A stretch of 64,000 nt of DNA, taken from NCBI RefSeq assembly GCF_038025025.1, contig NW_027117345.1, positions 1,984,001 to 2,048,000 on the forward strand. Direction: 5' to 3'. This document shows positions 2,315-57,589 of this stretch, in pieces (position 1 is the stretch's first letter; every line of letters starts with the position of its first letter). Below the pieces are notes generated by a model that ran no database searches, was not told the origin of the DNA, and worked only from the letters and a program-made list of their open reading frames with translations. The stretch is from Phyllosticta citribraziliensis (lineage: Eukaryota). Made by a program: the position numbers and the translations under genes.

Positions 2315-3908
2315 ATGACTTCGTCTGCCGACCCCGTCGACATTGGCCAGCTATCCGACGACCAGCAAACGGCCCTCCAGCAATTCACCGCCGTCACCGA
2401 CCAGTCGGTCGAAACCGCAGTCCCCTTGCTGCAGAGATGCCAGTGGAACGTCCAAGTCTGCCTCCCCCATCGTTGCTCCATCTCGGCCTTGTTCTAACCC
2501 ACTAAAGATTGCCATATCGAGGCATTTCGACGGTGAGCCCGCTGAGCCCGCGATACCAGAGGAACCGGTCCCCGTCCCCCAGGACACCCGCCGGAGAGAA
2601 ACCCTGGCAAACGGCTTTGGCCGCTCAACTGCCATCGGCCGCCGCAATCTGGAGCCCGCGCCGCGCGTCGTCCCCCAGCCCGAGCATCAAGTTACACAGC
2701 AAGCTCCATTGATACTGTCCCTGGCTCTCTTCCCCTTTCGATTCGCCTACAACATTATATCCAAGCTCTTCAATTTCTTCTCCTACCTATTCCCGTTCCT
2801 CCCCCGCCTCATCGGGACGCGGACTGCTCCGACCGCACGCCGGAGAGACACGAGTGGGCGGCGGCCCTTAAATCCGCGAGACACGGCTGCGAGATTCATC
2901 AGGGAGTTTGAGGAGGAGTATGGTGCCCACGAGATCCCTTTCTTCGAGGGAGGCTATGCGCAGGCATTCGATTTGGCAAAAAAGGAGCTCAAGTTTTTGC
3001 TGGTGGTATTGGTGTCTCCCGAGCACGACGACACCACATCCTTCGTCCGCGAGACACTGCTGTCTCCCGAGGTCGTAGCTTTCATAAAAAAACCCGCAAA
3101 CAACATGGTCGTCTGGGCGGGCAACGTACAAGATTCAGAGGCCTACCAGGTATCCAACGCGCTCAACTGCACGAAATTCCCGTTTGCAGCCCTCATCGTG
3201 CACACGCCGTCCGTCTCCTCCACGGCCATGTCCACGGTCGCACGCATAGTCGGCCCAACGCCACCAACGACCTTCATGTCGCGCCTCCAAACCGCCATGG
3301 CACAAAACTCGGAGCCCCTCAACCGGGCACGCGCCACTCGCGCCGAGCAACAAGCCGCGCGCAACATCCGCCAAGCACAAGACACGGCGTACGAGCGGTC
3401 ACTGGCACAAGACCGCGAGCGGGCGCGGCGGCGTCGCGAGGAAGAAGAGGCGCGGCGACGCGCAGAGCAAGAGGAGCGCGAGAAGCAAGAAGCCAAGGAG
3501 CGCGAGGCGCGCAACCTGGCGGCGTGGCGAGCATGGAGGGCGCGCTCCATCGCCAACGAGCCGGGACCAGACGTCAAGGACGCGGTGCGAATTAGTCTGC
3601 GCATGCCCTCGGGCGACCGCGTCGTGCGCCGCTTTGCCCCCGACGCCGACATGGAGGAGCTGTACGCGTTTGTCGAGTGCTACGATGTCCTGCAACAGCA
3701 GCAGGAGGCGTCGCTCGACGGCGCAGAGAAGCCCGAGGCGTACGCGCACGAGTACAAGTTCGTCCTGGTCTCACCCATGCCGCGCGAGGAGTTCGACCTG
3801 CACAAGGGCGGCTCCATCAAGCAGCGCATCGGGCGCAGCGGCAACCTGATTGTAGAGCGGACGGACTTGGATGACGACGAGGAAGAAGATGGAGACGCCG
3901 CCGAGTAG
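2315..3908 (+). CDS. UBX domain protein (UBA-like, UAS, coiled coil, UBX; FAF2/Ubx2-type Cdc48 cofactor)
   Basis: ATG 2315; UBA-like LQQFTAVTDQSVETAVPLLQRCQWNVQ; intron 2456-2507; hydrophobic segment LILSLALFPFRFAYNIISKLFNFFSYLFPF; UAS-like FFEGGYAQAFDLAKKELKFLLV; UBX VRISLRMPSGDRVVRRF. Confidence 0.9.
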
Positions 3909-12809: not shown

Positions 12810-14449
12810 ATGATACTGGAACCCCTCCGCAATCCTCTACCAGACACGGCTTCGGAGCGTCATCACGCCAAAGACGCGATGCCGAGGGAGGGCGAGGCTG
12901 AAAAATACGACTCTGATGCAAGTGATTTCGAGAAGCAAGCGCCGCTCACATGGGATGATGATCCCCGAAATCCGTACGTTGATTTCCACAGCCATTTGAA
13001 CCCTGCTCGACTCGCTCACGCCTCCAAAGTTACAATTGGCCACATTCGAAGAAATGGCGCGTGACCGTCCTGTCTTGCTTCATCACATTCATCGTCGGCA
13101 TCAACGGGACTGCCATGACCGCGGCGGCGGACGACATCAATTCCCAATTTGGCCTGAGCGATGAACATTTCCCCAACTCTTTTTGGCCTGTCTTTTCTTG
13201 GACGCTGGCCGCCGGGATTGTGCCCTTGGCTGTCCTGCCACTTATGGAGACATTTGGAGTTCGAAAAGCCTATCTGCTGGTTTACCTGCTTTTCGTGGTG
13301 TTCATTGTTCCTCAAGCGCGGGCCCAGAACTTTGCGACTCTCATCGTCACCCGCGTAATCACTGGCGGATGCGCTGGAATTTTGGAAAATGTGACCAGCG
13401 GCATATGCGGCGACCTCTGGAGCGACGCGATTGAAAGGAGTCTGCCCATTAACTTGTATATCTTCAGTCTGCTGGCCGGCACCACAATCGGGCCTGTCAT
13501 CGGAGGAGCTATTATGACGACACTCGACTGGCGCTGGGTTTTCTACGTCCAGATCATCCTTTATGTTTCGATATTTCCTTTTGTTTTCTTTTTGCTCCCC
13601 GAAACTCGCAGAGAGATTTTGGAACATTCTCAAGATTATCAGCATTCTCGAGATGAGGAGCGTTCTCAAGATGAGCAAAAAGCTTTCTCTAACCGCACTG
13701 CCGGTCATGTCAGCCCAACGGAACTGTTCAAGACCGCCATTGCCCGCCCTCTCCGCATGCTCACCACCGAGCCGCTGGTTCTATGTGCCACTTTGTGGTC
13801 ATCCTTCTGCTTTGGCAACGCTCTCATCTTCACGCAAAGCATTCCTCTGGTCTATCGCAGCCTGTACGATTTTTCCGCTTCAGGCACTGGTCTTGTGCAA
13901 GCTGCTCTCGTCATCGGCATCGCCATCGGGTTGCTCATTTCGCCGCTCCAGGATCGCCTCTACGCTTCGAGTGGTGACAAGACCCGCCCAGACGCCCAGC
14001 AGCCCGAGGCCCGCCTGTATCTCGCCATTCCTGCGTCCTTCTTGGGCCTTGCTGGTGGTCTCTTTCTCTACGCCTTCACGACTTCTGAATCGCACCCACA
14101 GCCCTGGATCGCGCCGACCATTGGCATCGCACTCGTTGGTGTTGGCATTCAGACCGTCATGACTGCCGCTTCGCATTATGTCGAGGATGCCTACCCAACT
14201 TATGCCGCCTCTGCGATTGCGGGAGTCGCAGCAGGCGAGAATATTGTCGGTGCTTGTCTCCCGCTGGCGTCGACTGCGCTGTATACGCAGAGCGGGCTGG
14301 GCTTTGTTGGCGGAAGCGCAGTTTTGGCTGGAATCGGGTGTGGTGTCAGTTTTGTGCCGGTCGCCTTTGTGGTTTTTGGGCCATGGATCAGATCGAAAAG
14401 TCGGTTGGCAGCCACTTCGGGGCGTCAGCCTGGCGTTGGAATGGCCTGA
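12810..14449 (+). CDS. MFS transporter, DHA1 (drug:H+ antiporter) family
   Basis: WDDDPRNP|YNWPHSKKW across intron 12974-13029; about 12 hydrophobic segments; GTTIGPVIGG, LPETR, PEARL motifs. Start 12810 or 12879. Confidence 0.9.
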
Positions 14450-18216: not shown

Positions 18217-19085
18217 CTACTTGATCTTCATGCTTTCAAGATAGAAATTCGCGACATCTGTACCCTTTTCGCCATGAGATTTGAGCCTCTCAGCGATGTC
18301 ACCGAGACCATGGACCTCCTGAATGCCTTTCGTTCCTGAAGACACCAGAGTCAAGGCTGACATGGAGCAACTTTCGGAAGCCCTTTCTTGTATAGCTTGC
18401 CAGCGCATTGTCTAATATCCGTCAGCATTCAACGAGATGGACGACAAAATCAAACATAACCCACTTTTAGCTCATCCACGAAGGACCTCACGTCGTCTGC
18501 TTCGCCCTCGACATAGACAGAGCCTGGGTATCCTGGCCGCGAGAAACCGGAGAGGCCAGATTCTCTTGACATTTGTACAATGGCACGTCGCTTACTCGTA
18601 GCGAGAAGATGATGCATCCACAAAACTACTCTCAGACCTTGCGGCTCATGCGTGTTTGGACCGTCATCGGATTGCTGCGAGGCGGATTTGAGAGCATCAT
18701 TGCTCGCAACCTTGACGTCTTCCAATGCCAGTCTCAAATCTCCAATGATCAGGTCCACGCATTCAATTCCAAGCTCTTGTTTTTGAACGATGTCTCTCAA
18801 GGCAGAACGGAGATGCCTCCTCTCATCGTTTCGGATTGCCTCGCCAAAAGAGAGAAAGACTTGCGGGAGGGATGCCTCAGGATAAGCTGTAGGCAGGACG
18901 AAAGAGAGCGTGTGAGATTCGTCGACTTGGATTTCAAACTCGATATCTTCGTCGGGCGATTGTGTGTCTCTGACCAAGGAAAACTCTTCGGGGTACATGC
19001 TCTCAAGCAGGGCGATTTCATTGTGTTGTCGTTCGCAGTTTTCCGAGGCATCCAAAATGTGGCCATCTTGCGCATGCGATGCCAT
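18217..19085 (-). CDS. RWD domain protein (RWDD2/DUF1115-like)
   Basis: EIALLESMYPEE, LPTAYP RWD motif, LWMHHLLATSKR, GFSRPGYPGSVYVEG; intron 18412-18464; last exon TMRWQAIQER. Confidence 0.85.
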
Positions 19086-19217
19086 CGCACCACGGGCTAT
19101 AATTGGAATTCACAGAAGATGCCAGTTGATCGCAGGAAGTGTAGCGGGATGAGGTCGAAAGTGGGTTTGGCGCGGATGATGACGTGGTGGGTAGGAGCTT
19201 TCCCGAATACGTCGGAA

Positions 19218-19244
19218 ACGCGTCTACCCCAATACACGACGCGT
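19218..19244. promoter_or_regulatory. Two MCB (MluI cell-cycle box, ACGCGT) elements upstream of RDH54
   Basis: ACGCGT at 19218-19223 and 19239-19244, 44-70 nt before the RDH54 ATG, within a 200-bp divergent intergenic region. Confidence 0.55.
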
Positions 19245-19287
19245 TCCTGACAACCAACGCCACGCAACTCATCCTCTTGTTGTGACC

Positions 19288-22200
19288 ATGCTCAACAACA
19301 AGCCCTTCAAATCTCCTTTGCTTTCGCGAAAACCTCCATCAGACGCGCTCGAACGTTCCCAGCCCTTAGAATCGACCGGTCCGCCCCAGAAGAAACGACG
19401 CGTCTCCGAAAACAGCCACGACCCGTCGCACGCCCAACCAAGGCCGTCGCAGACCTCGAGTACCTTTCGAAAGCCCCTGCTCTCAATCGTGAACCCTGCG
19501 GCCAAAGAACCAAATACGCCCTCAAGCGATGACGGAAACGAGGCATACTACATGGTGCTCTGGAGGAAGTTTACTACCAAAAAGAACAAGACCTGGGACG
19601 GAGACGGCGTGCTCTCTGTCAGAAATGGCTATGCGTTCCTTCAGGATATAGACGGCCGTGAAATGGGCAAGACAAACTGCAGCATGCCGCTGCTTCCTGG
19701 CTCGACGATGTCGGTTGGAGGCAAGGAGATTGAAGTCGATTCTATCGTTTCGAAGAAGGACTACCTTTCCGGCAAGCCATTTCTGAACGCTAGGCCTGCT
19801 CCGATAATCAAACCATCAGAGCCCCAAGAACGGAATGTTGAGACAAAGCCGCTCCTCAGTCTGAAAGCTCGCACCAAACAGGAAAAGGTGGAAGCCAAAC
19901 AGGTCGACAACGTGAACCTGGCCGCTGTGAGAAGCAGCCAGGCTACAAATGGAAAATTCAAGAATCCTTTGTTGGACAAGACCGGCATGCCAAAGTTGAC
20001 CAACACAGTGGTGCCTCAACCGCGACACGATCCCAGAGCTACTGGTGCCCTAGTCATGAAGAGGCCCCCATCCGCCAATGTGCCCAAGGGGAAGCAAGTG
20101 GTCGACGTTGTCGTTGATCCGATACTGTCCAAGCATCTTCGGGATCATCAGCGAGAAGGTGTCTCATTCCTCTACGATTGTGTCATGGGTATGGGTTTGA
20201 GCGGACACGGTGCTATCCTTGCCGATGAGATGGGACTCGGCAAAACTCTGCAGTCAATCACCCTGATATGGACGCTCATGAAACAGAATCCGATTCACGA
20301 GGAGCCGCCAGTGGTAAAGAAGACTCTGGTTGTCGCCCCGGCCGGAACGGTTCAGAACTGGTGCAAAGAATTTCGCAAATGGTTGGGAAGAGAGAGAATC
20401 GGCGTGTTCGTTGCCGATGATACAAAAAAACGCCTGAGAGACTTTACCAAAGGGAGGTGCTATCATGTCTGCATCATTGGCTTTGAAAAGCTGCAGAAAT
20501 GCTACCAAGAGATCAGCAAAGATTGTCAAATCGACATGATCATCATTGACGAGAGCCACAGGCTCAAGACAGCAAAGAACAAGTCATCGGCTGCCATCCG
20601 TTCGCTCAATTGTGACAGGATCGTCTCACTCTCGGGCACGCCCTTCTCGTAAGTCATATGAAGAGCTTGGTTATCATACTCATCTAACCTACAACCAAGT
20701 AACAATCTTCTGGAATTCCACGCCGTAGCCGATTTGGTGAACCCAGGTTGTCTCGGCAAGCTCTCGACGTTCAAGAGAGAGTTTGAGAATCCAATTGTGA
20801 AGGCTTCGCAGCCTGAGGCGACTGCCCATGACAGAGAGAAGGGAGCCTCCCGACAGGAGGAGCTGGACAGGTGAGTGGAAGCATTCATGCTCCGGCGCAA
20901 GGCAGACGTCCTCTTCAAGTGCTTGCCCTCTAATACGGAACACAGATTAGTGGAAGCATTCATGCTCCGACGCAAGGCAGACGTCCTCTCCAAGTACTTG
21001 CCTCCCAAGACGGAACACATCTTACTTTGTCAACCCACCAAGAACCAGGCAGAGATATACCGCTACGTCCTTGCGTCGCCGGTATTCAAGGGCGCTCTAG
21101 GCAACGGCAACGAAAACGCCTTTCAGCTCATCAATATTCTAAAGCAGGTCTGCAACGGGCCCAAACTCCTGAGCGATCCAAAATCCATTATCTCGCCAAA
21201 CGACACGCCTGAACCAGATACAAAAATCAGCACCACCCAAGCTGTCTTGGAGGCTGTCCCGGCGAAGCTCCTCAAGAATCCTGGTATAAGCGCCAAAATG
21301 CATGTGCTCGACACTCTGCTGTATCAGATCCACACGTTCACGGAAGAAAAAGTTGTCATTGTCTCGCATTATACGACCACGCTGGACATGATAGGAGCCC
21401 TTCTCGTTTCTCTCTCATATCCTTACCTACGCATCGACGGTTCAGTGGCAGCCAACAAGCGACAGGACCTGATCAATAAATTCAACAATAACGACGCCTC
21501 TTCGACCTTTGTCTTTCTGCTGTCCACTAAGGCGGGTGGCGTTGGAATCAATCTGATCGGAGCGTCTCGTCTCATTCTGTTTGACGTCGACTGGAATCCG
21601 GCGCATGAATTGCAGGCCATGGCTCGCATACACCGCGACGGACAGAAGCGACCGTGTAAGATCTATCGACTCCTGACAATGGGTGCTCTTGATGAGAAAA
21701 TCTATCAACGCCAGTTGAGCAAGCAGAGCCTGGCCGACAGCGTCATCGACAACAAGAGCGCGGGATCCAGCTTCACCAAGGAGGACCTCCGCAACCTGTT
21801 TACTCTCGACGAGAGCGGAATATGCCAGACGCACGAACTGATTGCCTGTCCTTGCGAAGGCAGAGGAAATGGTGGTGGCCTGGTCCCCTCGAGCAACACT
21901 GAGGAGCGAGCTATTCAAAGCACGGACATCGAGGACGAGGACGACGAGGATGACTTGCCTGATCTTCCCGTCTTGCTCAAGGCCAGCCAAGTCGATGTGT
22001 CGGCGCAGGAACAGGAGATCAAGATCAAGAAGAAGTCAAAGGGCGGCGACATGATGGCTTTGATGCAGTACGCGCACATTGACGCGTCTTTGTTGAAGCA
22101 GGCGCCGAAGCGGGCCGTCGCGCGACTCGAAATGGACGATGATGACGAGAACGACGACGAAGGCTCAGATGAGACCGTCGCCCAGGATGTTGTTGACTAC

Positions 22201-22290
22201 GAGGCCATGATTGACGACCAACCGTTGCTACAGGTGTTGAAAGAGAAGGACTCTTTGGTCAAGTTTGTCTTTTCCAAGACCACGTCTTGA
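19288..22290 (+). CDS. RDH54: DNA repair/recombination SNF2-family translocase Rdh54/Rad54B
   Basis: N-terminal YYMVLWRKFTTKKNKTWDGDGVL; LRDHQREGV, ILADEMGLGKT, IIDESHRLK, FLLSTKAGGVGINL, QAMARIHRDGQKR; introns 20649-20699 and 20871-20945. Confidence 0.93.
20867..21020 (+). repeat. 75-bp tandem duplication; first copy is RDH54 intron 2
   Basis: 20871-20945 vs 20946-21020 align ungapped with 65/75 identities; ACAG precedes both copies. Confidence 0.95.
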
Positions 22291-23425: not shown

Positions 23426-24406
23426 TTACGAGATGAAGGTCTTGTCGGCCCAGCTGGAGTAGTCGGAGATGACGTCAGAGATGGAGACGGCGGCGCTGAG
23501 CTGCTTGGAGAAGGAGGCGCGCGAGGAGGTCGAGGCGCCGTCGCCCGTGTTGCCGTACTCGCCAAAGGAGACGCCCGAGGTCCTGGGCTCGTCGGTGTTC
23601 CACACGGACCAGCCGGCTGCGTTGATGACGTCGCTGAGCTCGCTGTTCTGGAAGACGACCTGAGCGTACTCGCCCCAGGGACGGCCGAGGTAGTACGCGC
23701 CCGACGAGACAGACTGTCCAGACGCAGCTTGCACCTTGCTCTTGTTGATGACGTAGTAGGATGCGCCGGACGACTTGGCTCCGTTGGCAGTCACGTAGCC
23801 CTTTGAGGCGGCGAGCACGCCGATGGTGCAGTCCTCGAACCAGGCAGTGGCGAGCTGGCCGAAGATGAAGTCGGTCGCGCCCTCAATGTACGACTTGGCG
23901 TAGATCTGGTTGCCCTCCTGGGCCAAGAGCGTGTCCTGGTAGCCGGTGAATTGGCAGGCGTAGAAGCCCATGTTGCCCTCGGCGTAGGCCGACAGGGCGA
24001 CGGCTTGGCTGCCCTCGCCGTGCGTGTTGGCGACGTTCACGTTGTACATGAAGAAGTTGCCGGTGTGGACGGCGAGGGTGGCAGTGCCGTCATTGTCGAG
24101 GCCGTCGTCCTGGCTTTTGGCAGCCGTGATGGTGACGGCGTTGGAGCTGTAGTCCGTCTCGCTGTCGGAGTAGCCGTAGACGGTTAGGGAACCTGAGAGC
24201 TCAGGGACGATAACCTGCTCCTTGTAATCGCCAGAGTAGATAAAGATGGTCTGGTCGGAGCTGGAGCTAGTGTCGAGAGCGTCGACGGCTTCCTGAATGG
24301 TCGAGTATTTGCCGCTCGAACCGACAGTGAGAGCACCCGAGGGAGGAGAAGTGAGTGCAAGAGCACTGCCAACCAGGGCAGATGCAATGGTGAAAAGTTT
24401 GTACAT
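23426..24406 (-). CDS. Secreted pectin methylesterase (CE8)
   Basis: Signal peptide MYKLFTIASALVGSALA; YSTIQEAV, GSQAVAL, GYQDTL, IEGATDFIFG, YLGRPW motifs; intronless. Confidence 0.96.
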   Translation of the reverse strand: MYKLFTIASALVGSALALTSPPSGALTVGSSGKYSTIQEAVDALDTSSSSDQTIFIYSGDYKEQVIVPELSGSLTVYGYSDSETDYSSNAVTITAAKSQDDGLDNDGTATLAVHTGNFFMYNVNVANTHGEGSQAVALSAYAEGNMGFYACQFTGYQDTLLAQEGNQIYAKSYIEGATDFIFGQLATAWFEDCTIGVLAASKGYVTANGAKSSGASYYVINKSKVQAASGQSVSSGAYYLGRPWGEYAQVVFQNSELSDVINAAGWSVWNTDEPRTSGVSFGEYGNTGDGASTSSRASFSKQLSAAVSISDVISDYSSWADKTFIS

Positions 24407-24509
24407 GATTGAAAATCAACGATTGACTGAATAGTAGCTTAAAAGACGGGTGTTGTGTAGGCGGGCGAGGGGTCTCCTGTCGAGAGAGCAGGGGACGGGG
24501 ACGTTTTGG

Positions 24510-32029: not shown

Positions 32030-33958
32030 ATGGCATCTCTCTTAGCCCTCGCTTACTTGACGTTTGATTTTCTATTTCTCTTTGACCTGCCCGTCGCCAA
32101 CGCCGCTGATGCCCTGTTTAATGCGCCCCCAGGAGTCGACAGTGCGTGATCCCTTCTCCATCCAAGACCAATGCGTCTAATCGAGTAATCCAGTATGGTG
32201 TGGCAAGGCCTACCGTCCAGCGTATGACGTCTGCAAGCCTGAATCCGTGGGGCCTTCATGGTTGACCGCCCTCCAGCAACGCCTCGTTCGAGCCGGGTGG
32301 GTGGCTCTACGAGCCGGCCCGCTCAGCTGAACCACGCCTGGACGTCCAGGTGTACCCGCGGATGAACCTCTACGTCGAGACCGACACGACGGCCAGCTTC
32401 ATCGTCGACGCCAGACTGTCCCTTGTCACGGGCGAGCCGTACTACAACGGCGTGTACCACAAGGACACCAAGGAGACGACGCCCTTCGACCACCTGTACA
32501 TTGACATTTCCCTCTCAGACAGCGGCCGCTCCCTCGTGGCCGACAAGAACGTCTCGGTCAACTCGACGGCCAACGAGTTCCAGTTCTCGCTCGCCGGCAT
32601 CAAGGCCCAGCTCGAGCCGTACAACGTCACGCTCGTCGGCGCCTCGCGCGACGGCAACCAGTCGTACACGGCCACGACGCAGCTGTTCAAGCTGCCGGCC
32701 CGCACCGACGGCGGCAGCGTCGTCAAGCTGGACCGCCTGTACAACGGCCTGCAGGTGCAAGACTACCTCTCCAACAGCGACGCGTGGAGCTCCCTCTTCC
32801 CGTACTCGTTCTACGGCTCGTGGGACGGCTACTTCCAGCGCGCCATCGTCGACAATGCCAAGGCGTACAAGGAGTACGGCTACAATATCGTGCATGTAGT
32901 GCCCAATGCGGGCCTCGCCAATGAGGCCTTCAACTTCACCGAGTTCGATCTGTTCATGGATACGTGCGACGAGCTTGGGCTGTGGGTCATGTACGACATG
33001 CGGTGGACGTATAAGAACCTGTCGAGCGTCACGGAGCAGGTGAATCGGTACAAGGCGCGCAAGTCGCTGCTCCTGTGGTACACGGTAAGCCCTCCTCTCC
33101 CTGGCAGACTGTGAACGAACGACTTACCACGACGACCATCAGGCCGATGAGCCCGACGGCCAAAGCGACACGCTCAACGCCACCGTCGACACATACACGC
33201 ACATCAAATCGCTCGACGCCTACCACCCCATCTCGCTGTGCCTCAACTGCCTCAACTTCCACTACGACGCCTACTCCTCGGGCGCCGACATCATCCTCTC
33301 GGACGTGTACCCCATCGCCGTAAACACATCCTACAGCGACGTGTACGGCACGCCGTGCAACACGACCTACGGCTGCTGCGGCTGCGACGACTGCACCGGC
33401 GCCTTCGAAGACGTCTCGACGCGCCTCGACCTCTTCGCCACGTACCAGACGTGGCTGCGCCAGGAGCCCAAGGCCTTCTGGGGCGTGCCGCAGGCCTTTG
33501 GCAACGAGACGTTCTGGAGCCGCTACCCGACCGACGCCGAGGAGGCCGTCATGGCGCTGCTCAGCGTCAACCATGGCGCGACTGGCATCGTGGCGTGGGA
33601 CTGGCCTACCCAGCCCGACATCGTGACTGTCACGGCCGGCCTGGCGAAGGCGCTGACCGCCGCCGATGTCGCCGACTTGCTGCTCGCCGCGCGGGCGGCG
33701 CCGTTGGTGGTGACGGGCCGCGAGCGCGTCGACGCGGCTGCGTGGCGCGTTGGCGGGAAGATGCTGGTCAGCGTCGTCAGTTTGGAGTACGAGGACACGC
33801 CCGAGAGCGTCAGCATCGCGCTGCCGGTTGCGGCGAGCGGGAGCAGCACCAAGTGGGGGCCGGGCGGGTGGACGGTGAGCGGGTCGACTTTGTCGAAGCA
33901 GGGGCTGCAGGCATTGGAGGTGGACGTGCTCGTGTTGGATGTCGTTGCTGGCGCGTAG
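32030..33958 (+). CDS. Uncharacterised secreted protein with glycoside hydrolase-like catalytic region
   Basis: Exons 32030-32141, 32194-32221, 32277-33084, 33143-33958 splice in frame; hydrophobic leader; WCGKAY; LWVMYDMR; LWYTADEPDG; Cys cluster PCNTTYGCCGCDDC; many N-x-S/T sites. The GH assignment is by resemblance only. Confidence 0.75.
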
Positions 33959-42889: not shown

Positions 42890-42942
42890 GACAGTTTGCT
42901 AGATGTCGGGGACAGTTTGCCAGATGTCGGGGACAGTTTGCC
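42890..42942 (+). repeat. 21-bp tandem repeat, about 2.5 copies
   Basis: gacagtttgctagatgtcggg gacagtttgccagatgtcggg gacagtttgcc. Confidence 0.9.
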
Positions 42943-52570: not shown

Positions 52571-54990
52571 TCACTCGCTCTCCCCATCACTCTCCAAATC
52601 GCCCTCGTCCCAGCCCTCCTCATACTCATCCGCCAACCCCTTGAGCCCATCATACAGCGCCTCGCGCTCCTCGACGCCGCCCATGCGGCCAACCAGCAGC
52701 GCCATGCGCCGCAGGCGGCTCGACAGCTTCGACGACGTCGCCAGCGCCGTGCGGACGGCGACGCTGCTCCTGTCCGGGCCTCCTCCGTCTCCCTCCTCTG
52801 CATCGTCACCGTCGTCTTCCGGCAGGTTAAAGATCCGCGGAAAGCTGTCGAGCGCCGGGAAGAGCAGGGGCGTGGCGTAGCGGAAGGCGCGCGGCACGGC
52901 GCTGGCGAAGCGGCGGTCGCGCGTCGCGGCGTTGAGGGCGGCCATCGTCGGCGCGTCTGCTCCATCTCCGTCAGTAGTGGCAGTAGCCCACGCCCCGCGC
53001 AGCGTCTCGACGCGGCCGAAGACGTGCTCGCGGGCAGTGCGGTCCGCGGCGTCGTCGCCGTCGCGAGCAATGCCGCCCATGACGATGTCGAGCTCCTCCA
53101 GATCATCAGCGTCGGCGAGGGCGGCCGCCACGGCGTCAACGCGGGTCGACGCCGCCTCGCCGCGCGCCGTTTTTCCAGACTTGCTGCTCGCGACGCGGGC
53201 GTCGTGGCGGGCGCGCAGCTGGCGGGCGACGGCGCGGGGCGCGGCGACGCGCATGCGGGCCTCGACGACGCGGCGGTTGCCGTCGCCGTTGAAGGCGGAC
53301 TCCATGGCGGCGAGGGAGGCGGCGGCGGGGTCGTGGGCGCGCAGGCGCGAGGGCAGCGTTGCGGTTTCGAAGACGGCGGCGCGGAGCGCGCTGGTGTACC
53401 AGGGGTGGGCTGGCGAGGGGGGCAGGGCGAGGTACGAGGGGTGGTGGGGGCGTGAGGGCCGGGCGGGGAGGGGGATGTAGGTTGAGGTGATGGGGATGAG
53501 GGCGGTTAGGGAGAGGGCGCGGTTGTGGAGTTGGGCGCGCTGTTTGTCCTGCGTTTGTGTGAGTAAGGTACGCATGTCGTTGATGTGGGAGGATGGGGGG
53601 AAAGGGGAATAAGGAGGATGAGAATAGTGTAAAGTAAGTAGATTTACGCACCCGCTGCTGCTTCTCGTCGTCCTCGAGTGCCCACGTCCAGATACTCAGC
53701 TTGCCAAACTCGTCGCGCAAACGCTCGACATAACGCGCGGAGAAGCCTCCCCAGGCGTCGTCGACGCTGCTCAACACCTGTAGGCCTTGCAACTGGTCGC
53801 ACTCTTCGATAAACGGGCGGAGGTCTCTGCCATCAATCGTCAGAACGCCATCAATCTCATGAACCATCCGACCCCCAAAGAAGCAAGACGACCATCGTCT
53901 TTGACGAGTCAACTCACCGATCAAGCAAGTCATGCTCGCGATCCAAGCCCCTAAACAGCTCCTCGCCCACGCCCCACGACTCGAACGGCTGCAGCTGCGA
54001 CTGCAGTTCGAACTCGTGCAGCTGGACCAGCGAGCGCGGATGGTAGTAGACGCGGCTGTAGTCGGACCAGTAGCGGACTGTGTCGTTGGTGAGAGGCGGC
54101 GGGCTGGTACCTGCATCGAGTGCTTGAGTATATGCGCTTGGGAGGATAGGCTCGGATTTGATTGGGGTTGTGCCATTGTTCCTGGAAATGTGGGTTAGAG
54201 GTGTGTAGGATTTTGGTCTGCATGTGGAGGGTGGAATGATGTGCTTTTGAATGGGAGAAGAGGGTGTCGATGTTCGTGTTGTTGAATCAGGAGAAGAGAG
54301 AGTGAAGAGAAATAAGAGACTTGGGTTGGAGCACGGTTGGAGAACGGAGATGTACACACGAGGCCTTAGCATCAAGACGAGAATGTGAAGAGGATGCAGA
54401 AGTCCATCTGTAGGATAGTTCCGTATCTCTTGAGTGCTGAAGGCGAGAAAAGAAGCGAAATAGAGAGCAGCTTCGACAGGCAAGGAAAAAAGAAAAAGGA
54501 GAAGAGAAGAAGTTTTGGAAAAGAGGTAGTATCAGAAAACGGCAAGAAACCAACAAACCACCTACCACAGAATCTCCCTCGAGCCATCATCCTCTTCTAG
54601 CTCATACAGCGCATTCACCTTCTTCAAGCTGCCAAACGCGCCCTTGAGGTCATAAATGACGGCCCGCGGCATGAACGTGTCAGAGCCATCGACGCCCACG
54701 CCCGGCCGGAATAGGACGTCATGGTTCACCGGCGACTCATTTTCTCCATCGTCGTACGTAAAGTACGATTCCTGGGGGGTGGCATGTTAGCAGTGCAGAT
54801 GCTGGTGTGGTGGTGGACGGCGACGTCATGTGGGCGGTGGCCGTGATTGGGCGACGCGTTGCGCAGAGGTTACAAGCGGCGATGCTGCGGGTTTGGAAGA
54901 GGTATTCGAATGACTGACTTGAGTGTTCCAAAAGTGTGTGCCGAGATAGTTGGCCTGGTTGCCGAATTGGAGGGTTACGATTTCGTGCAT
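52571..54990 (-). CDS. DML1: Misato/Dml1 tubulin-like mitochondrial distribution protein
   Basis: [72 protein letters not shown]; four introns, including a 384-nt one at 54182-54565. Confidence 0.95.
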
Positions 54991-56791: not shown

Positions 56792-57589
56792 ATGGCAACT
56801 ACAACACCCGCTGCGAAGATCGACCGGCAAACAACTACACCCTTTCTCCTCAAGCTCTTCTACCGCCAAAGCGCCTTCCATCGTCTTGAGGAGTTCAGCC
56901 CCTACGCGAACAGCCCTCCTCCGCCTCACCTCCAAATTTACACCTGGCCGTCATGTACCCTGCGCGAATTGACACATCTGCTCGTCACTGCTCTGCCGTC
57001 ACTCCTTCCCTCACCCGCCATAGGAACGCGTCTCTCGTTTCGCCTCATTTTCCCCGACACAAAAGGCGCCGCCATGGCTGCCACTGGCGGTGGACGCGGC
57101 GCAGATAATGGCAATGTGCCACCAGGACGGTATCTGAGCAAAGAGCTGGGGAGCGTAATCATTGGAGGCGGTGGGCCCGGCGTGGAAGAGGATGACGTCG
57201 TGCCACCGACATCTCGCGCAGCCGCAGCTCTCGACCGACTCGAAGGCGACGCCGACAAGACGCTGGCCGACGCGCGCTTCGTCATTGGCGACTACGTGTC
57301 ATGTTGCATCTTACCTCCTGGACCTGACGGCAGCGTTGCGACAGGTCCACCTCCCGTGCCTGCAAGTCGGGGATACGGACCCCCTCCGTCGAGAGAATAT
57401 GGTGGAAGAGGCAGGGAAAACGGGTTCGGGGACAGGTACGGAGCGGGAGGCTACGGACGCAGAGGCCCAGGACCAAGGTACGACGGGGGGAGGGGCGAAA
57501 TTCCAAGAGGAGAATGGAGGAGAGGCGAGATTCCAAGAGGGGAACCAGCGCCGTATGGAAGGGGACGAGGGCGCCCGCGGCCGTATTGA
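56792..57589 (+). CDS. SAP18: Sin3-associated protein SAP18 (ASAP/EJC-associated) with RGG-rich tail
   Basis: IDRQTTTPFLLKLFY, HLQIYTWPSCTLREL, KTLADARFVIGDYVSCCI; intronless ORF. Confidence 0.92.
   Translation: MATTTPAAKIDRQTTTPFLLKLFYRQSAFHRLEEFSPYANSPPPPHLQIYTWPSCTLRELTHLLVTALPSLLPSPAIGTRLSFRLIFPDTKGAAMAATGGGRGADNGNVPPGRYLSKELGSVIIGGGGPGVEEDDVVPPTSRAAAALDRLEGDADKTLADARFVIGDYVSCCILPPGPDGSVATGPPPVPASRGYGPPPSREYGGRGRENGFGDRYGAGGYGRRGPGPRYDGGRGEIPRGEWRRGEIPRGEPAPYGRGRGRPRPY

Follow-up and report, generated by a model that had tools for sequence, protein, structure and literature searches.

An intron probably gained by tandem duplication of exon sequence in a Rad54B/Rdh54-type gene of a Phyllosticta species

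We describe a 75-nt spliceosomal intron in a Rad54B/Rdh54-type gene of a Phyllosticta species whose sequence is a diverged copy of the exon that follows it, and we conclude, with a probability of roughly 90%, that it was gained by tandem duplication of exon sequence. According to the mechanism we propose, a 75-bp coding stretch of the gene would have been duplicated in tandem between ACA microhomologies, and the upstream copy would then have become an intron. Splicing runs from the GT that opens the first copy to the AG of the duplicated ACAG with which the second copy begins; exactly one repeat unit is thereby excised, and the message regains its original, conserved frame. A gain through tandem duplication is supported because the tandem copy is spliced, because the exon copy has kept the ancestral residues, and because two outgroup orthologs lack the intron. 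An earlier note on this DNA had arrived at a similar interpretation; the tandem copy, its splicing and the gain by duplication stand, while the order of events given there, with an in-frame duplication first and a conversion by about four substitutions afterwards, is not among the supported parts.

The gene lies on the forward strand of a 64,000-nt stretch of genomic DNA (hereafter the window), to which all coordinates refer. From its open reading frames and from reading of the sequence we derived a gene model of 958 codons, with the following features.

19288..20648, forward strand: exon 1, with the ATG at 19288 (open reading frame 19195..20652); Pfam SNF2-rel_dom, E 5e-42; a piece of RNA contig ends at 20648.
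20649..20699, forward strand: intron 1, 51 nt, GTAAGT..CTAAC..AG; skipped in contigs X1, X4 and X5, retained in the DNA contig X8.
20700..20870, forward strand: exon 2, 171 nt, ending in ..GAC AG; covered by RNA contig pieces 20700-20866 plus 4 ambiguous bases.
20871..20945, forward strand: intron 2, 75 nt, in phase 2; of the two tandem copies it is the upstream, diverged one, as seen by TRF and in RNA contigs.
20871..20876, forward strand: donor GTGAGT, which reads ATTAGT in the exon copy and holds the in-frame TGA at 20872-20874.
20930..20934, forward strand: CTAAT, the candidate branch point, which precedes the acceptor AG by 11 nt; CCAAG in the exon copy.
20942..20945, forward strand: acceptor ACAG, identical with the first 4 bases of the second repeat unit; the same 4 bases end exon 2.
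20946..21020, forward strand: exon copy of the duplication, encoding (R)LVEAFMLRRKADVLSKYLPPKTEH(I), which covers the conserved last part of ATPase lobe 1 together with the linker.
20946..22290, forward strand: exon 3, up to the stop codon (open reading frame 20875..22290); Helicase_C lobe and C-terminal tail, Pfam E 5e-21.

The encoded protein combines an SNF2-related N-lobe (PF00176) with a Helicase_C lobe (PF00271) in Pfam, and its nearest solved structure is zebrafish Rad54 (1z3i, 'similar to RAD54-like'; E 1.2e-131), with ERCC6/Rad26 reaching only 5.8e-68. The closest database proteins come from Phyllosticta, namely P. citrichinensis (97% identity, measured over the C-terminal 447 residues), P. 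citriasiana (80%) and P. capitalensis (77%), and a protein database search places other Botryosphaeriales orthologs at ~60% identity. Judged by these similarities, the gene belongs to a Phyllosticta species and encodes an SNF2 ATPase of Rad54B/Rdh54 type. Many of the database matches are named RAD54B by JGI, and some are named RAD26 or helicase by NCBI; with respect to RDH54/RAD54B versus RAD54, RDH54 appears a plausible gene name. The name 'RAD26' is carried by the orthologs P0002, P0005, P0028 and others despite Rad54 being the best solved match, and it looks like annotation carry-over. The neighbours of the gene, both on the reverse strand, are a divergent upstream open reading frame for an RWD-domain protein (18450-19109; PF05773, E 6e-13) and a downstream one for a pectinesterase (23426-24415; PF01095, E 1e-48).

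Intron 2 (20871-20945) and the next 75 nt of the exon (20946-21020) are identical at 65 of 75 positions in an ungapped, script-counted comparison, in agreement with the count in the earlier note. TRF places the array at 20867-21019, with a period of 75, 2.0 copies, 88% matches, no indels and a score of 243; in this register the units 20867-20941 and 20942-21016 share 66 of 75 positions. At other places in the window, period-75 self-matches reach at most 40/75 (mean 20.5, s.d. 4.5), and the maximum over 20 mononucleotide shuffles of the window was 36. Likewise, local alignment of intron 2 with the adjoining exon scores 57, compared with a shuffle maximum of 15, and beyond this exon no second copy of intron 2 was found in the 64 kb (best other score 17). 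Intron 1 has no similarity to its own flanks. TRF returned seven arrays for the window in all, and none of the others has a period above 36. These six short arrays, at 3422-3480, 13625-13677, 33302-33370, 42890-42942, 52869-52932 and 57485-57544, have periods of 27, 18, 36, 21, 30 and 30 nt, respectively; all are multiples of three, and the arrays may be in-frame coding repeats.

The sequence details that the earlier note had read at the splice signals hold on rereading. The donor GTGAGT (20871-20876) faces ATTAGT (20946-20951) in the exon copy, and CTAAT (20930-20934), which we take to be a candidate branch point on the consensus CTRAY, faces CCAAG (21005-21009). The duplicated acceptor and its junctional microhomology are equally present: ACAG occupies 20867-20870 and again 20942-20945, and ACAT follows at 21017-21020, which places ACA at all three unit borders and suggests slippage or microhomology-mediated repair as the origin of the duplication. 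RIP was considered as the cause of the differences between the copies; the copies are only 75 bp long, and the differences, 7 transitions and 2 transversions in both directions, show no clear signal of it.

Read through without splicing, the first copy is interrupted by the in-frame TGA (20872-20874) that the earlier note had seen in it, and the frame reads ...EELDR*VEAF.... Joining 20870 to 20946 instead yields ...EELDRLVEAFMLRRKADVLSKYLPPKTEHILLCQPT..., which is identical over that stretch to the annotated P. citrichinensis ortholog P0001. The splice sites lie one repeat period apart, and splicing restores the original coding sequence, the product being that of the ortholog; the claim that a conserved Rad54-family segment is regained is thereby confirmed.

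Evidence for splicing was sought in assembled contigs, in which rare variants drop out, so that rare retained forms would go unseen and quantification is not possible. Four runs (X1, X4, X5 and X8) out of the 15 listed were aligned to positions 20300-21500 at 80% likeness. Both introns are skipped in X1 (organism label A; a 3654-nt record with 0 differences over 1075 bases), in X4 (also label A; 344 nt, 0 differences over 324 bases) and in X5 (label B; 3624 nt, 47 differences in 1075 bases, 95.6% identical), three runs that stem from three studies and two organism labels. Each of them lacks 20649-20699 (51 nt, GT..AG) and a further 75 nt, which the alignment places at 20867-20941 (GT..AG when the cut is moved by +4) and which, given the 4-base ACAG ambiguity, correspond to 20871-20945 with GT..AG ends. 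The joint between 20870 and 20946, for which the earlier note had proposed a test in RNA, is thus present in the contigs of all three runs. Since the ordinary intron 1 is missing from them as well, these contigs represent spliced RNA. The copy retained in X1 and X4 matches 20946-21020 with 0 differences, hence it is the exon copy that remains and the upstream copy that is removed. We conclude that these 75 nt form a true intron that is spliced out. X1 possibly derives from the assembly's own project; it is independent with respect to splicing, but perhaps not with respect to the strain.

RNA contigs alone cannot separate splicing from transcription of a single-copy template, and one might therefore suppose that the copy is never spliced, that the contigs come from single-copy strains, and that the allele in the window is a pseudogene or a misassembly. 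We regard this as very improbable. The absence of any difference over 1075 and 324 bases indicates that X1 and X4 come from the same or a nearly identical strain, and the skip lands on GT..AG. Misassembly is ruled out as the source of the copy because the two copies are not identical but differ by 12-13%; a divergence of 13% would not result from an assembly error, and the copy is also found in an independent DNA contig of a relative. This contig, X8 (organism label D, listed, with a question mark, as DNA), is 1430 nt long and covers 20300 to 21423 without a break, including both introns. It differs from the window by 71 substitutions and three one-base indels (93.4% identity), and all three indels fall inside the intron copy (+1 after 20878, -1 at 20910 and -1 at 20913), which leaves X8 with an intron 2 of 74 nt, not a multiple of three. 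Around the intron copy no indel is listed for the coding sequence of X8. As intron 2 is present both in the window and in X8, it is older than the split between the organism of the window and this ~93%-identical relative.

The differences to X5 and X8 are concentrated at third codon positions (35 of the 40 listed differences, which are those covered by the counts), also in exon 3, downstream of the TGA, where 18 of 20 fall there in a pattern that is not pseudogene-like. As judged from these counts, purifying selection acts on the gene both before and after the TGA, and such selection downstream of it implies that the 75 nt must be removed.

The comparison with orthologs bears on which of the two copies is ancestral. 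In a reference alignment of 31 orthologs, the conserved segment (...LVEAFMLRRKADVLSKYLPPKTEH... or variants thereof) is single-copy in all 31. Translation of the intron copy gives VEAFMLRRKADVLFKCLPSNTEHR (...VLFKCLPSNTEHR), which lacks the Y and the K that are invariant in 31/31, the P that is kept in 28/31, and the S/A found in 31/31; the exon copy keeps all four. Because the exon copy retains the ancestral residues, the change at these four amino-acid sites took place on the intron side. The intron copy has visibly decayed as coding sequence while its splice signals stay consensus-like. Two further differences between the copies are synonymous (CGG/CGA and CCC/CCT); there, as in the donor region, either copy may hold the ancestral state.

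The same alignment gives an indication of age. In both copies the motif V-E-A-F contains Ala, as it does in P. citrichinensis and P. citriasiana, while Gln is found at this position in P. capitalensis and in 20 of the 31 orthologs. Provided that the copies have not undergone gene conversion with each other, the duplication would have occurred within the genus, after the split of the P. capitalensis lineage and before that of the ~93%-identical relative. The event had been called recent, which holds at the scale of the genus but not at the level of strains: a relative that has diverged by 6-7% in DNA shares the intron, and 9-10 of its 75 positions differ from the source.

Furthermore, the intron is absent from distant outgroups. 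A scan of metagenomes kept 80 loci, among which no Phyllosticta DNA was found; 2 of the 80 are full-length fungal orthologs, namely L001 (53% identical over query residues 4-958) and L002 (51%, residues 5-957), and loci L001-L014 were examined further. A tblastn search with a 220-residue query from P0001, the junction at its centre, aligned unbroken and ungapped in both of these distant (~52% identical) orthologs, which have no intron at the intron 2 site. Among L001-L014, the HSP crosses the site in 12 loci and breaks there in 0; L012 ends earlier and L013 has no match. An intron of the same position and phase, for which the earlier note had suggested looking in outgroups, was therefore not encountered in L001 or L002, and the result applies to these two distant orthologs (~52% identical) only. 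Intron 1, which lies inside the SGTP..N motif, is also absent from L001 (5220-5828) and L002 (3014-3580), where coding is unbroken.

These data also speak to the idea that no intron was gained at all, and that exon sequence instead replaced a pre-existing intron here by gene conversion or unequal exchange. The comparison covers distant outgroups, and the closest ones may still have an older intron there. The intron is absent, though, from both distant orthologs (2/2), its length equals the repeat period exactly, and it starts and stops at the borders of the repeat unit, to within the 4-base ACAG overlap, which is not expected from conversion of an old intron. We thus give the replacement of an old intron very little weight and retain gain by tandem duplication as the best explanation.

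Within this explanation, two orders of events can be envisaged. At the unit border, the exon copy today reads ACAG/ATTAGT, that is AGAT and not the AGGT of the strict Rogers model, and the intron copy reads ACAG/GTGAGT. In a stepwise intronization, 25 in-frame codons would have been added first, and A>G and T>G (creating donor and TGA) as well as C>T and G>T (creating the branch point) would have followed later; this version differs from our best explanation only in the order of events. It is suggested by the present exon copy, which reads AGA TTA and contains no GT, by the exon copy being ancestral at the four amino-acid-changing sites, so that most changes lie on the intron side, and by the distribution of the differences, 4 of 9 of which fall within the 11 bases of the donor hexamer and branch pentamer (hypergeometric P = 0.023, for a motif picked post hoc). 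Alternatively, an ancestral AGG TTA would have given AG/GTTAGT upon duplication, a site that could be spliced at once; the intron would later have changed T>G and the exon copy, synonymously, G>A. The donor region requires two substitutions on either path, on the latter one per copy; the one-step birth thus needs as many changes and passes through no defective intermediate.

An insertion of 25 residues at the end of lobe 1 and the linker, where the two ATPase lobes meet as aligned to Rad54 (1z3i), would probably cripple the enzyme. Because such an insertion is probably harmful, we mildly favour birth in one step and consider the stepwise order possible, at somewhat less than even odds. No intermediate allele was seen: in a search with a 471-aa query, no open reading frame fragment of a relative starts in the intron copy or crosses the intron-less site among the 120 matches listed, the best of which is 55% identical, so that none comes from Phyllosticta and the search is uninformative for this genus. 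The clustering of differences in the donor and the candidate branch point would also fit a later tuning of splice signals. Should the stepwise order be true, the locus would show in nature how a duplicated exon acquires its splice signals bit by bit, a course of events that Hellsten et al. 2011 (PMC3265369) argue to be unlikely.

That introns are gained through tandem genomic duplication is a model that reportedly goes back to Rogers in 1989. Among the closest precedents, the vertebrate ATP2A1 intron fits the model and has been re-enacted experimentally (Hellsten et al. 2011, PMC3265369; PMC4974935); there, too, the intron is one unit of a tandem exon duplication, and the message is restored when the GT in one unit is joined by splicing with the AG in the unit that follows. 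That intron is about half a billion years old, whereas in our case the copies are still 87-88% identical, the source is visible, and the exon copy has AGAT and not AGGT. Fission yeast has genes with duplicated 24-bp AGGT units (PMC4974935), likewise a fungal, exonic tandem duplication, for which ESTs show an intron across the duplicates. In contrast to these multiple 24-bp AGGT units, the locus described here, in a filamentous Dothideomycete, has one 75-bp duplication, and its donor and candidate branch point differ from the source copy.

A potato RdRp intron arose by a lineage-specific tandem duplication and is backed by phylogeny as well as by transcripts (Ma, Lan & Niu 2016, PMC4974935), yet its duplication spans an intron-exon border and thereby inherited the branch site, polypyrimidine tract and acceptor, while the one described here is purely exonic. 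In Drosophila, novel intron positions from tandem duplication are on record (PMC2891723). In Dothideomycetes, the fungal class concerned here, new introns also stem from introner-like elements (Collemare et al. 2015, PMC4457414); these elements are multi-copy and dispersed, whereas the only detectable relative of intron 2 in the 64-kb window is the adjacent exon. The view in the earlier note that there are few clear natural examples has to be qualified. A 2012 review (PMC3443670, Table 1) tabulates 188 inferred events, including some in Cryptococcus, and calls this the only mechanism shown in vivo, but cases that bring together RNA, source sequence and phylogeny are indeed few. The event is therefore of a known kind, with a mechanism already in print for ATP2A1, fission yeast, potato and Drosophila, and reveals no new mechanism. 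The locus itself appears to be unreported in the literature that we searched on Phyllosticta intron gain and on tandem-duplication/AGGT intron gain.

Altogether, the locus adds a well-documented case from nature for a route of intron gain that is known but has rarely been proven well. The origin of new spliceosomal introns is still debated, mainly since most young introns cannot be traced to a source (PMC4974935; PMC3443670). Here, the source adjoins the intron and is still 87-88% identical to it, and splicing is visible in RNA. Given genomic DNA from other Phyllosticta, this single locus could date the gain and separate a one-step birth from stepwise intronization. It also offers a ready-made minigene case in a fungus with short introns.
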